Below, piece by piece: positions 42,001-48,000 of a DNA stretch of 64,000 nucleotides. The position numbers were made by a program. The stretch's first letter is position 1; each line of letters opens with the position of its first letter. Source of the DNA: Escherichia coli (GTDB taxonomy: Bacteria; Pseudomonadota; Gammaproteobacteria; Enterobacterales; Enterobacteriaceae); assembly GCF_016903815.1 (NCBI RefSeq), contig NZ_CP069974.1; one strand, given 5' to 3'.

Positions 42001-45000
42001 TGAAGACGGCTTACGCCACCATCAAAGGTATTGAGGTGATGCGTGCACTACGCAAAGGCCAGGCCTCAGCATTTTATTATGGTGATCCCCTGGGCGAAAT
42101 GCGCCTGGTAAGCAGAGTTTTTGAAATGTAAGGCCTTTGAATAAGACAAAAGGCTGCCTCATCGCTAACTTTGCAACAGTGCCCTTTTTTCTGCCTCATA
42201 CGACGCACGGGAAACCAGCAGACCTGTGCCATAGCCTTTTGCCACATCCACATACAGTAAGTCACCGCGTTTTATCTGCGCATTGATTTCCCCTCCCAGT
42301 TCAGTAAAACCGGTTCCTTCTGCAGCAAACGACTTCGCCTCTGTCAGCAGGTCCACCATGCTGAAGGCCAGGTTTTTACTTTCCAGCACAGGAAGGGCCA
42401 GATGAATGGCCTGCTGTGCCGGCGTGTGAAGCCCGGCTTTCTGCAGACTGATAGCGGTTTCCAGCAATGTCTCACCGGCACGCGCCTTTATCTGATCAGA
42501 AACCACCGTAAAGGAGGGATGGCGGGCAAGTTTTTCCGCAGTACGGGGTTCATCCAGCGAGGAATACAGCCGGACATCACGACCACTGCGGGCCAGACCG
42601 TTCAGGGTCGCGTTGTCCATCGCCATCTGTGTGACGGAGGCAAAAACCGTCGCACTGTCGCTGACGGAATGCCCGGGCGTTTCCACCCAGCCGTTCTCCA
42701 GCTTCAGTGCCGTGAATGGTGAATCAGCCACAGGCAGGGTGGCCGGTTCAGCCCGCCCCGGCACAACAACCGTCATCGCATCTTCACTGACGGATGCCAC
42801 CTGCAGGCGGTCACCGCCGGAGACGCGGAGTCCGGGAATTTTCCCTGTCACCCTCAGTCGCTCGCCGTCTGCCACCGGCATTTTTTCCGGCCGGAACAGC
42901 GACCAGCTGCTGTCCAGGGAGGAAATACGCACCACCTGCGTTTCGCCCTGCGCATCCCGCAGGTTCAGGCTGTGACTCTGCGCTGTCACCCGGTCTATCA
43001 CATAGCGGTCATGACTGCGTGTCTCCGGGTTCCACTGCTCCATCACCATCCCCGGTCGGTACATATCCCGCAGATAACGGCTCCGGCTGTCCAGCCAGAC
43101 CGGTGACAGTGCAGTCATGGTCACCTCAGGGTGTCCGAGCACGCCCTGCGTTTTCAGCTCACTGCGAATGGCCTCTGTCAGTATGGCCTGTTCCCGTACC
43201 CCGCTGACCTGTGCCACGCTCTCTTCTCCGGCTTTCACGCTGGCCGCAAAATCTCCGGCCAGCCGGGCATAGCGGACATTACGGTCCGGTTCACTGATGA
43301 TGGTGGCCGGTCGCTGTTCTCCCCCCTGCCAGCGATATGTGTTCACCCCGGCATCCTTCATGGCCATCAGTGCACTGCCTGTACCGGTTCGCTGCCCGCT
43401 GTCGGTTATCAGGACCTGTACGTTATGACGTGCGGCACCATCCAGCAGGGTTAACGTCTCTTTCAGGGAGAGTTTTTCGCCCTGGTCGACGATAACGGTA
43501 CTGCCCGGCGGGAAGGCCATGCCTTCCAGCAACTGACGACGTCCGGTTATCAGTTCACCGGACAGCCGTTCATCCTGCTTCAGGTTCATCTGCGAGCGAC
43601 GGTCAGCAGCGATAATCTGCACCTCCCGCCCCTGCTCCCGGGCCATCATGACCAGTTCAGCCACCCGCTCACGCTGCCCGGCTGCACCGCCCTGCCCGGA
43701 CACAATGGCCAGCGACGGGCGATCCTGTGCCAGAACACTGACGGCATCGCTGTAACCGGCCGTCCGGGGGACACTTTTCTCCGGATGTACGGTCACCCGG
43801 TTCTGTTTCATGATGTCACGACTGAGTGCCCGGACTGACAGCTCATCGAGCACATGAATCCCGGACGTGAACAGCCCCTTCTCACGATCGAGGGGGATAA
43901 GCTGCTCACGGCTGATGGCCTCATCGATACCGGCGCGTGCCCGTTCAATCACACCATTTTCCGGCGGCAGTATGCCGACCGTCCTGGCCAGCACGTCCGT
44001 ATACGTGAACTGCACTTTTCGTTCACTTAATCCGGCAATGGCCTGTGTCACCGCCTGCTGCACATCCGGCCCGTCCTGTGAAGCAGGCCCGGGCGCCTGC
44101 GTGCGGATCTCCGCACGCTGATCCGCCGCGTCACGATATGCCCGGATGTCGAACCCGGTTTCCTTCAGCGTCTGCATCCATTCAGCCATTCTGACTTCAG
44201 GATCGACGTGCTGTTTGGATTTACGCGTATCCAGTGCCGCCACATCCCGGGATTTCAGCGAGGCGTCTTCACCGACGGCCTCCCGGATAGCCTGTGAGCG
44301 TCCGGAGAAGGCTTCCACCGGTACGCCCGGCATCTCCCACATACCGTGCTTACCGACCACTTCGGTTTCATAACCCAGCGCCTCAACGCGCTGACGTAAC
44401 TCACTCTGATATATTTTCCCGAACGCAATCCGGTTCGCGAGCACGTTCTCGGAAAATCCGGTTTTCCCCACTTTGTCACTGCTCAGTGTCTTCCATTCGC
44501 CGTTATGCTGCGTGACATTAGCCACCACCACATGCGTGTGTAACTGTGGGTCCTGATCGCGACTGGTGTCATGGTTAAACAGTGCCATCACCAGATTACC
44601 GGTCAGCACCGTTTCTGACTGTCCGTCCGTCATCACCCGTGTGGAAGCCAGCGCCTCCACCTGACGGACAGCAAAATCCACAGCCTGGTTATGTGCATCA
44701 ATAAGACGTTTATCCCCCCCGAGCATGGCCATCATGGAGACACTTTTGGGGGCGGAGAAGGTCAGGTCGTAGCCGGGACGATGCTTATTACTGCCATCCT
44801 GCATGCGGCTTAAATCCGCCCCGTCCGGCAGCCTGCCCTCCAGAAGACGGGTAAAAACATCCTTATCGACGCTGCCCTGCAGCCCAAGCTGTTCAGCCCC
44901 CTGAACGGAAAAAAGCACGGGTGTTCATGACGTCAAACAGCGTGGCCGCCGCTTTCTCACCGTAGATATCTTCCAGCTGGGCATAGGACTGGATACCAAA

Positions 45001-48000
45001 CACATAACAGCCACCGAACTTACGGGCTTCCGGCAGGATCTCCACCAGGTCCGGCAGTTTGTGTAACGTGGGTACCCTGGCTGACTTTGATACTGCCCAG
45101 CGAGAGCGGGAAAATACAGCTCCAGCAGATATCCGTGATCGGGTTTACAAAACGCCCCTCACAGGCAGAATCCGCAGACGCCGCAGGGACATGACCGGCG
45201 AGAAGGAATAACATCAGCAGCCACAGTCTTCGCTTCATTTTCTGCCCTCCTCTGCCGGAATAAATTCCACCTTCAGGAAGCGATCGCCGGGAACGGCGCT
45301 CACCCGTGCCGGGACCTGATCAATGCCGAGGCGCTGGCAGAGCACACCGTTCTGGTCAAAGTAAATACGGCTGTCCAGCGCTTTCTGCATCTCCGGGATA
45401 CTGCCCTGCACGAGGATAATTTTGCTCTCCAGTGTGGGCGGCGTCTGGCGTTTCATCCAGGCCACCTGCGCCGGATCATCGCCATTGATGAAATACAGCG
45501 TCTGGTTAAAAGGAACATACTGCAGCGGATTCATCACTTCACCCTGACGGGCAAACACCCGCCCTTCGTTATCCCGGATACAGCTGGTTGTATTTTGCGA
45601 ACTCCTTCGCACTCTGTTTGAGGATAATTTTGTAGGAGGAGTTACCCCATGCCGCACGGGCCGCACTGGAGGCCTTGTCAGAGTCAAAGTCGACGATGTT
45701 CTGTGTGATGGTGATATAAGCACCGGTATGACGACGGGCGGTACGGTAACCTTTCTCAATAAACTCACCGACCTTGTAATTTTTGAAGTCCAGCAGACGC
45801 CAGCCTTCATCAATGACGTTCAGTTTCTTGAGGTTACGCGGCGTGCGGTACATCCTGTTCTCGATGTAGATAATCAGGGAGAACATCACCGCAACCAGCA
45901 GTGACGGACGGTCTTCCAGTCCGCCCAGCTCCAGCACCACCATTTTTGCGTCATCCCGCAGGGACGGCTCATCAGAGTTAAAATACTGACCGTAAGTGCC
46001 GTTGGCAGTGTACTGGTCAAGCAGCACAATCATTTCGTCCAGACGGCTGCGGATAGTCGGTGACCCGGCATACTGCTCGCTGTCACTGGCGTTTTTCAGG
46101 AAATCCACCACGTCATCAATACGTGCCCTGTTCTCTTTGGCCAGCCAGGAGGCCCTGACCGCCTGCAGCAGCAGACCTTCATGCACTTCATCCAGGTTAC
46201 CGTTGGGGCTGGCCATCACTGACAACTGGTCACGGACACGCTCCGCTGACTGGTCGATATCGGTGATATTCGCAAACGGGTTAAAACGCAGGGTTTCACC
46301 GTCCAGATATACGCCACCCATGTTCTCACACAGGGACTTGTAGCCATCCCCCATGTCGAACACCACGGCAAAGCCCCCGGAGTCCAGCACGCTGCGGATA
46401 AGGGGCTGTATCAGTCCGGTTTTACCGGCCCCGGAGGTGCCACAGACCGCCATGTTGTAGTTGGTGTTATTCATCCCCCGGAAGAAAATATCGATAAACG
46501 CCAGCTGGTTACGGTAGGTGGGTGCCAGCAGACCTGCCGGTGTCAGGGGGTTATCCGCCACTAACGGCATCAGGTTGGCAACATTAAAGCTCTCTGCGCG
46601 CTGAACCACACCGGCCTCTTTCAGCTGTTTAAACAGCCCTTTCCCGGCCATAAAGGGCAGGCAGGTCAGGAAATTGCGCATGTGGTTAAAGCGCGGTGAA
46701 ATCAGCTCAAAACCGTTTTTACGGAAGCTGTTCAGGATGTCCTGCTCCACTTCCAGTGCCGTTTCATTATTGTCCTTGCAGAAGGCTGTGATGTTGAGGA
46801 AGTAGGACACGACAGAAGACTGACCGGAGCCCAGCCGCTGACGCAGTTCCCCCCACTCCTTCGCCTCTTTCTCCACGGACGGAAACCATTTGGCATAGGA
46901 GGTCTTCGACTTTTTCTCCAGGTCCATGTACTTCAGGTTGGCTTCGCTGTGGGTTTTCACCTGGTCTTCCACCACCAGAGTCAGCGTCAGGATGAACGGA
47001 CAGGAGATGGACAGTTCCGGGTTCAGCAGGTTGCTGTAGTTGTCGGCCATATTCCACAGGAAGGCGATTTCCGGGTTACGGGCCAGATGGAAATTCAGGA
47101 TGCGGGCCGTGCTGTTCCTGCCGTTCTCACGCAGGCCCAGCGTCAGGTAATCAGCCCGGACTTTCAGGTCAAAACTGTCCTCCACACACTGATAATTCAG
47201 ATCAGAATACGGGTCCAGCTGACGTCTTTTCGGGTACAGGGAGTCCGGGTTATGATTAATCATCTCCCCGACAATATCGATAAAGGCCTGTGCATCCACC
47301 GTCTGTGTGGCGATACTGGCCCCCTGTAACGACGCCCGGATGATTTTCACCAGGTTTTCCATTTCCAGAATGTCAGCCCGGCTTTTTTTCTTCGAGGGAG
47401 AACAGTACGAGAAGAATACCCGGTAATGGCGCAGGGTCAGGGGCAGATTCATCCCCTCCGGCAGCGGAAACTGTGTCGCTGCCGCGTTCATATAATAGGC
47501 ACGGGTAATGGCGTTAAACCGTTCAGCCTGTTCACCGGACCAGGAGAACTCACGCAGCCCGTATTCAATTCTGTCACCAACAAGCTGGCTGGACTTCAGA
47601 TGGATGCAGAACGGCACTCCGCGTGGCAGTTTGGTGCGCAGCATGTGGTCGAGCGCCTCCACAATGGACTCATTCGCCCCATTGATGGGAATGGCTTCCA
47701 GCATAAAGCCCATCGTGGTGTCATTCATGAACAGACCGGACTCCTGGTTGTAATCACGGTACGGCAGCAGACGGCTGAACTGCGGGAAGCTCATTTCGCC
47801 CAGAACTTCATTGGCCTTTGCGGATTCGTCAGGCAGTTTCAGTGCTGTGACGAGGGAGTTAACCGCCTGAGTGACGGCCTCAAGTGGGTTATTCACATGA
47901 ATTCCTTAGTTGAAAAATAAAGCGAGAAATGCGGTAGCCATGAAGGGAATACCTGTAATTAACGCGCCATTTCCCGGCGCATATACAAAGATTTCGGTTT

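Follow-up and report, generated by a model that had tools for sequence, protein, structure and literature searches.

Recurrent deletion breakpoints, chiefly at traU nucleotide 166, in the decayed transfer operon of an IncF resistance plasmid of Escherichia coli

Loss of conjugation genes is a familiar event among the F-like plasmids of enteric bacteria. At least 25% of the classical F-like plasmids (those of group A) lack essential transfer (tra) genes (PMC5102898), and related F2:A1:B- plasmids with damaged tra regions proved non-conjugative in experiments (PMC4398462; bioRxiv 10.1101/2021.08.17.456450). The survey of Fernandez-Lopez et al. 2016 (PMC5102898) was made at the level of gene presence and absence, and breakpoints were neither mapped nor reported; in the searchable literature we found no description of the plasmid records considered here, or of a tra deletion hot spot. 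Our subject is a stretch of 64,000 nucleotides of E. coli DNA (assembly GCF_016903815.1, contig NZ_CP069974.1), hereafter the window, in which the F-like transfer operon of a plasmid has been cut down by three deletion joints. The scar itself is ordinary, already annotated tra-operon decay in an IncF resistance plasmid. The added interest comes from the recurrence of breakpoints, chiefly traU nucleotide (nt) 166, to the nucleotide across independent plasmids.

Three joints and the fragments they connect

The reference for a BLASTN comparison of window 42000-49000 was the tra region of plasmid pU13A_A (NZ_CP035478, locus L004), which has the full tra gene set and itself carries an IS1/ISKpn26 insertion (IS, insertion sequence) between trbA and traF. 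Against this reference, window 42184-49000 resolves into four collinear, same-strand pieces at 99.9-100% identity, all on the minus strand of the window: traC nt 1-2323 with all upstream genes (45574 onward, 100% identity), traW nt 288-633 with traU nt 1-166 (45073-45580; 508 bp, 100%), traD nt 1280-1451 (44903-45074; 172 bp, 100%, E 2.5e-88), and traI from nt 101/105 to 2825 (42184-44908, 99.93%). The overlaps of the BLAST pieces, together with a comparison of the flanks, place the joints between them: J1 joins traC nt 2323 to traW nt 288 at 45574-45580, J2 joins traU nt 166 to traD nt 1280 at 45073-45074, and J3 joins traD nt 1451 to traI nt 105 at 44903-44904. All three lie within 680 bp, and the plasmid measures at least 120 kb. 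A sequence-only reading of the window had named three deletion joints and the tra fragments fused at them, and BLASTN against the intact tra region and, independently, Pfam both bear it out; the alignment it had proposed as a check shows its joint coordinates to be right to within a few bases and gives flush microhomologies of 7, 2 and 2 bp.

The minus-strand open reading frames (ORFs) of window 40000-52000 include a traC-like ORF (45569-47896), short TraW, TraU and TraD ORFs, and a TraI-like ORF of 917 amino acids (aa) that adjoins IS26. The traC pseudogene (45574-47896, minus strand; nt 1-2323 of 2628, 100% identical to L004 26878-29200) lacks its last 101 codons, and its frame continues to a stop at 45569, in line with the early stop that had been predicted where traW begins (~45579). 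Its Pfam matches are TraC_F_IV and a truncated P-loop_TraG, the cut falling inside the P-loop domain. Next come a traW 3' fragment (45235-45580; nt 288-633, codons 97-210; L004 25561-25906) and a traU 5' fragment (45073-45238; nt 1-166, 55 codons; L004 25399-25564), both on the minus strand and 100% identical to the reference. The traU frame has 55 codons followed by 17 out-of-frame codons from traD, much as had been foreseen (about 55 codons, then traD at ~45073), and gives a 72-aa product (P0001) in which the TraU fragment covers positions 1-29 of the Pfam TraU profile. The traD internal fragment (44905-45072, minus strand; nt 1280-1451, codons 427-484; 100% identical to L004 8921-9092) is 172 bp long when the bases common to the adjoining joints are counted; it covers positions 253-309 of the 387 in TrwB_AAD_bind, and its frame stops just inside traI, close to where a stop had been placed (~44901).

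The traI middle fragment (42184-44904, minus strand; nt 105-2825; 99.93% identical to L004 5349-8073) has no start codon. It had been thought to lack its first ~27 codons, a figure that needs correction: codons 1-35 are gone, the gene is retained from nt 105, and the Pfam TrwC match begins at profile position 32. The N-terminus lost with residues 1-35 reads MLSFSVVKSAGSAGNYYTDKDNYYVLGSMGERWAG in the reference, which includes …GNYYTDKDNYY…, and so the paired tyrosines at the active site of the relaxase.

What was removed at each joint, and what marks the joints themselves? J1 cost 978 bp, namely the traC 3' end, the entire trbI and the traW 5' end, and has a flush microhomology of 7 bp, CCGGATA (coding strand TATCCGG). 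The J2 deletion, from the remainder of traU through traT and into the 5' part of traD, measures 16,308 bp in pU13A_A coordinates, counting that plasmid's own IS1/ISKpn26, and its flush microhomology is 2 bp, TA. At J3 the loss is 853 bp, comprising the 3' third of traD and traI codons 1-35, and the microhomology is 2 bp exact (GA), or 5 of 6 bp over 44903-44908 with one mismatch. About 18 kb of transfer genes have gone through the three joints. The BLAST pieces overlap by 7, 2 and 6 bp at J1, J2 and J3, for flush exact values of 7, 2 and 2. The parental sequences abut directly, and neither an IS nor foreign DNA lies at any joint (44903, 45073 and 45577 were inspected). When 200,000 joints were simulated at random within this region, the chance of a microhomology of at least 7 bp was P = 0.0006, that of three joints all having at least 2 bp was P = 0.004, and that of a sum of at least 11 bp was P = 0.0005.

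The joints are genuine and not an assembly artefact, because an identical 901-bp stretch holding all three is found in five independently assembled complete plasmids (CP020496, CP020519, CP103763, CP173527 and CP024863). The exact traU-traD fusion protein, P0001, is recorded on 52 contigs. The 5-kb stretch around the joints is 100% identical in three complete E. coli plasmids, CP020496, CP020519 and CP103763, and matches thousands of other F-like plasmids in separate pieces only. A query for J3 only returned the same five plasmids, and the 72,556 plasmids and 5,426 complete E. coli genomes searched include no record with just one or two of the three joints; the three-joint carriers are one lineage of five plasmids. 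The deleted segments have no match in the window or in the whole of the complete sister plasmid CP020496 (120.7 kb), which upholds the earlier statement that trbI through traT and most of traD are gone. Five gene fragments are already labelled as pseudogenes by the RefSeq annotation pipeline (PGAP) in the sister records, with calls such as 'missing C-terminus' for traC and 'missing N-terminus' for traW.

Breakpoints shared with other plasmids

The traU breakpoint, …CAGGGTA^AGG in the site …AGCCAGGGTAAGGTC…, is nucleotide-precise and recurrent. Short TraU derivatives were gathered by a protein search with the 72-aa TraU-fusion ORF, and their tails were compared by reading the sequences. Eighteen protein clusters (P0001, 2, 3, 6, 8, 9, 10, 11, 14, 15, 18, 19, 20, 21, 22, 23, 25 and 38) share TraU residues 1-55 (…SIKVSQG) and then have differing tails, the first tail codon beginning with A in all 18. 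Truncations elsewhere in the first ~95 codons of TraU amount to about ten singletons only. Contigs were fetched for twelve of the clusters, and one more locus came from a metagenome pattern scan (of the further scans for traU joints, that of metagenome contigs added this one locus and that of genome contigs added none); the traU end is nt 166 in 12 of 12, that is, in 11 mapped fetched loci and the metagenome locus. There are 14 DNA-mapped loci that end at traU nt 166, with the partner site not resolved for L025 and L026. Two traU alleles, AGCCAGGGTA and AGTCAGGGTA, use this breakpoint.

The partners to which traU nt 166 is joined are many. With TA as the microhomology they are traD nt 1280 (the window's own joint), traD nt 537 in pKSE-C30_2 (L012), trbF nt 240, traN nt 1051 and traN nt 1619; the others are traX nt 510 (GTA), trbB nt 267 (GGTA), traX nt 219 and traX nt 606 (GGT- in both), and traD nt 2110 (A), along with a divergent traN position and traI nt 3806, for which the microhomology was not determined. 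An internal IS1 position is presumably a further partner, with GGTA, as read from protein P0002 and the IS1 sequence rather than from mapped DNA. Ten traU-166 joints other than that of the window, the presumed IS1 case being one of them, have 1-4 nt of microhomology flush with …GGGTA. The joints to these partners are collinear deletions without an IS. Is the break used from one side only? A fusion, P0088, begins exactly at TraU codon 56, and therefore use is made of the 166|167 break from its far side as well.

Several joints are found together in eight plasmids (the window, L012, L013, L016, L020, L022, L025 and L026), and in these a short stretch of traW-traU, with its end at traU nt 166, has survived repeatedly as an island. 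The island starts at traW nt 309-311 in three cases, and at traW nt 288, 469, 553 or 564 in others. A widespread multi-joint tra remnant with the same traU breakpoint is the P0009 type (L013-L015; 158 blocks of the collection), which has traM-traK, a traB-traW fusion, traU nt 1-166 joined to traX nt 219, and finO.

Recurrence extends to other breakpoints of the window. The traI breakpoint of J3 recurs within 1-3 nt in pKSE-C30_2 (about 95-98% identical), which also joins traD nt 892 to traI nt ~108. Plasmid pXZ (L011) has the same traC breakpoint (nt 2323-2325) with a different partner, traW nt 224, and in L025 a retained piece begins at the traD 1451/1452 position of J3. A second recurrent TraU truncation falls at traU nt ~310 (…ATGGTGA^ACC on the coding strand, L004 about 25255) and is represented by four clusters, P0095, P0098, P0099 and P0103, which diverge after …SPGCMV and have tails that all start with Thr. 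As a check on frequency, 120-bp query segments were compared with the 5,426 complete genomes, a match of less than 80% coverage being scored as partial. Partial matches made up 28 of 2738 records at the traU hot spot, 3 of 2831 at a traU control, 13 of 3195 at the traI site and 46 of 2837 at the traC site. These counts agree with the hot spots but are inflated by clonal expansion, and it is therefore better to count distinct joints.

Weighing the origin of the scar

What sequence of events accounts for this arrangement? The scar is probably that of an F-like (MOBF/MPF_F) operon decayed through IS-free microhomology deletions, with a later IS26 insertion. The deletions took out the DNA from the traC 3' end to the traW 5' end, from traU nt 167 to traD nt 1279, and from traD nt 1452 to traI nt 104, so that two short collinear islands, of 508 bp and 172 bp, survive. 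We infer, as the preferred scenario, that the three joints came from one replication- or repair-associated event, in which a DNA 3' end would make successive forward jumps to microhomologous positions along the operon, in a process like serial template switching (microhomology-mediated break-induced replication, MMBIR) or multi-break microhomology-mediated end joining. The starting point of at least one jump would be dictated by a DNA end formed site-specifically at traU nt 166; defined ends there and at the other recurrent sites would anneal through 1-7 terminal nucleotides to places farther on in the operon and be joined to them, often several times in succession. The IS26-bounded resistance segment transposed later, into an already dead traI. 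A plasmid so altered could presumably neither build a pilus nor process its own DNA, and would move only with a helper that gives R100-type TraI, TraD and secretion machinery.

A broader idea can be put forward tentatively: F-like operons may hold a few nucleotide-precise fragile sites at which a specific process makes a defined DNA end, and microhomology joining of such ends may yield the recurrent, collinear and often multi-joint tra deletions by which conjugative resistance plasmids become non-transmissible. The candidate sites may be traU 166|167 foremost, then traU ~310, traW ~310, traI ~105, traC ~2323 and traD 1451|1452, and the end-maker may be a strand-specific nick, a fixed nascent-strand junction arising in conjugative or vegetative replication, or a pseudo-site for a plasmid or host nuclease. 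Some specific candidates were tried and set aside. Hairpin stalling at the traU site was rejected when both strands of a 181-nt stretch folded no better than shuffles (z 0.2 and -0.9), and Dcm/Vsr nicking at CCAGG was rejected on the second traU allele (TCAGG), which is without the Dcm site and has the same breakpoint. Group II intron involvement is not indicated either, the plasmid's introns sitting in an unrelated target, …GAAGGTGCGC^CCCGGCAGAC. By-eye resemblances to IS1 ends, Tn3-family terminal repeats, a lambda cosN half-site, the ColE1 nic site, Chi and serine-recombinase (resolvase) half-sites, and likewise toxin endoribonuclease cleavage with RNA ligation, were inconsistent and are not relied on. 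A promoter and terminator scan of the retained traW-traU island gave weak antisense promoter-like matches only.

Several points weigh against the preferred scenario. Two of the three microhomologies are just 2 bp, each with P = 0.16 by chance. The five close relatives could stem from a lineage in which three events occurred in quick succession, and no structure or known recognition motif was found that explains the fixed traU end. The single event is argued from the absent intermediates and the clustering, not from direct evidence.

Might the deletions instead have been independent and sequential, a large one killing the operon and two small, neutral ones following by slipped mispairing? Each joint alone resembles a classic short-repeat deletion, and tra decay is common, as the loss of essential genes from at least 25% of group A F-like plasmids attests (PMC5102898). 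If the breakpoints are hot spots, moreover, repeated independent hits become likelier and clustering needs no single event, and sequential deletions at hot spots are a serious rival to the single event. We judge them the less likely course, given that no one- or two-joint intermediate exists among the 72,556 plasmids and 5,426 genomes, that the three joints fall within 680 bp of a plasmid of at least 120 kb, and that at least six unrelated plasmids show the same small traW-traU island with a joint on either side. The nucleotide precision of the breakpoints, and their recurrence across plasmid backbones and traU alleles, would also suit a sequence-specific enzyme, plasmid- or host-encoded (a nickase, relaxase, transposase or recombinase acting at pseudo-sites), that cuts at the six positions just listed as candidate fragile sites, the ends then being joined. 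P0088, which shows the other side of the traU 166|167 break in use, the GGGGGCTGAA that the traI and traX landing sites have in common, and the TA at the crossover in most mapped joints speak for such an enzyme. No motif is consistent across all the hot spots, however, no element or candidate enzyme was identified, and the very diverse partner sites and the microhomologies of 1-7 nt are typical of annealing-based joining rather than recombinase chemistry, so that direct enzymatic cutting seems to us a rather doubtful proposition.

Adjacent deletions mediated by IS26 or IS1 are suggested by the abundance of both elements in this plasmid family, by pRHBSTW-00822_2, which has IS1 exactly at its tra deletion, and by the truncation of tra genes by IS26 in sequence type 131 (ST131) plasmids (bioRxiv 10.1101/2021.08.17.456450). 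Such deletions retain the element, yet there is no IS at any joint here and the pieces abut with microhomology, and the sole IS26 event in the locus is an unconnected insertion of later date, marked by an 8-bp duplication of its own; we regard the IS route as very improbable. An assembly or sequencing artefact deserves hardly any credence at all, as different laboratories have obtained five complete plasmids with identical joints, and 52 contigs carry the fusion protein.

Order of events, transfer and known systems

On the reference, the traI piece at 32537-34990 and that at 42184-44904 have 8 bp in common; the two flank a 7.2-kb segment (34991-42183) bounded by IS26 copies at 34991-35810 and 41364-42183, which is therefore an IS26-bounded insertion, as the sequence-only reading had proposed, with a target duplication. 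The 8-bp duplication, CTTTTTTC, lies at 34983-34990 and 42184-42191. The tra deletions predate this insertion, because CP024863 (strain AR_0015) has the three joints with an empty IS26 site, its traI being continuous across the IS26 target with a single 8-bp copy. The IS26/traI joint, searched as a marker for the order of events, is confined to the same plasmid lineage. The cargo beside it differs among the sisters, with aac(3)-IId in CP020496 and blaTEM-1 in CP103763. The 2.27-kb stretch at 39080-41351 of the segment is missing from CP020496, near-identical as that plasmid otherwise is; in this stretch is a 434-aa ORF (40086-41390) bearing a NOV_C (PF13020) domain at its C-terminal end.

Around the scar, the gene order and sequence of an F-like (MOBF12/MPF_F) operon are kept in the retained parts, at 99.9-100% identity to pU13A_A. 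The twelve proximal genes, traM to traR (48056-54756, minus strand), are exact copies of the pU13A_A genes in 11 of 12 cases, traP being the sole exception. Beyond the IS26 segment lies the traI 3' fragment (32537-34990, minus strand; nt 2818-5271), within a match of window 30337-34990 to L004 703-5356 at 99.98%; traX and finO lie downstream of it, at lower coordinates of the window. Relative to the AR_0015 plasmid there is an inserted group II intron at 57822-60163, equipped with an ltrA-type reverse transcriptase, its target being …GAAGGTGCGC^CCCGGCAGAC, and CP020496 has three copies of the intron in repeats of the same target in its leading region. A partial IS1-like sequence at 22563-23038 is 93% identical to the IS1 of pU13A_A.

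Can such a plasmid still move? Missing altogether are trbI, trbC, traN, trbE, traF, traQ, trbB, traH, traG, traS and traT; traC, traW, traU and traD are left as fragments only, and the essential F-like gene set is incomplete. The TraI fragment is missing the N-terminal catalytic tyrosines of the relaxase, and traI is further split by IS26. Transfer of F requires traW, traU, trbC, traN, traF, traH, traG and traD, and Tyr16 of F TraI is the catalytic nucleophile. We strongly infer that the plasmid would be incapable of self-transfer, because TraW, TraU, TrbC, TraN, TraF, TraH, TraG and TraD are missing or cut and the TraC C-terminus is gone, and because the TraI fragment is without its start codon and residues 1-35, including Tyr16/17.

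An R100-type oriT nic region, …GCGTAGTGTGT^GGTGCTTTTGGTGGTGAGAACCACC…, is present at 55084-55117 (plus strand; a pattern match with 1 mismatch, 0 expected by chance), and in it, beside traM, is the R100-type sequence GTAGTGTGTGGTGC; nic is placed here as in the F/R100 oriT. Along with this region traM, traJ and traY are intact. Mobilisation driven by a helper through the R100-type oriT would be plausible, because oriT, traM and traY are intact. Strain 222, the host of a sister plasmid, has a second plasmid, NZ_CP020517.1 (110 kb), with traU (H253), which is a candidate mobilisation helper.

How are such plasmids classified? MOB-suite typing in PLSDB labels the tra-defective CP020496, CP056316 and others 'conjugative', on the strength of the relaxase and MPF marker fragments that they contain. 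PGAP annotates the AR_0015 traI (L009 13160-18340; CP024863 133159-138339) as an intact coding sequence, WP_074168427.1, by means of an alternative start; this protein lacks codons 1-35, and the product would miss the catalytic tyrosines. Automated typing is, as these cases illustrate, misleading for plasmids with internal tra deletions. The scar explains why vertical inheritance, not self-transfer, is expected of this multiresistance IncF plasmid. Should defined fragile sites be real, one could predict and test how fast, and by what route, resistance plasmids become locked into epidemic clones, and the tra operon would contain a new, site-specific step of DNA processing that awaits identification.

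The likenesses to described systems are substantial. Repeated, independent loss of conjugation genes with traI, traX and finO remnants kept is also seen in the F-like plasmids of Shigella and E. coli O104 (PMC5102898). With the defective IncF tra regions of the F2:A1:B- type, for example pEC958, the present plasmid shares a multi-replicon IncFIA/FIB/FII backbone, blaCTX-M-15 (as read in the sister plasmid CP020496), IS26-bounded resistance segments inside the tra operon, and the loss of trbI, traW and traU (PMC4398462; bioRxiv 10.1101/2021.08.17.456450). The pEC958-type examples are mostly IS26-bounded truncations, whereas the joints of the window are IS-free and microhomologous, and older than the IS26 insertion. 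One fixed end with variable distal end points recalls the one-ended adjacent deletions of IS1 and IS26, but there is no element at the fixed end, and microhomology takes the place of an IS terminus. The IS-free microhomologies of 2-7 bp, the clustered joints, and the short collinear islands without inversions resemble the complex deletions attributed to MMBIR and to fork stalling and template switching (FoSTeS). A take-off point that is precise to the nucleotide and has many partners is not something that the classical forms of those models lead one to expect, whereas at least 18 independent products here share one fixed end, traU nt 166.

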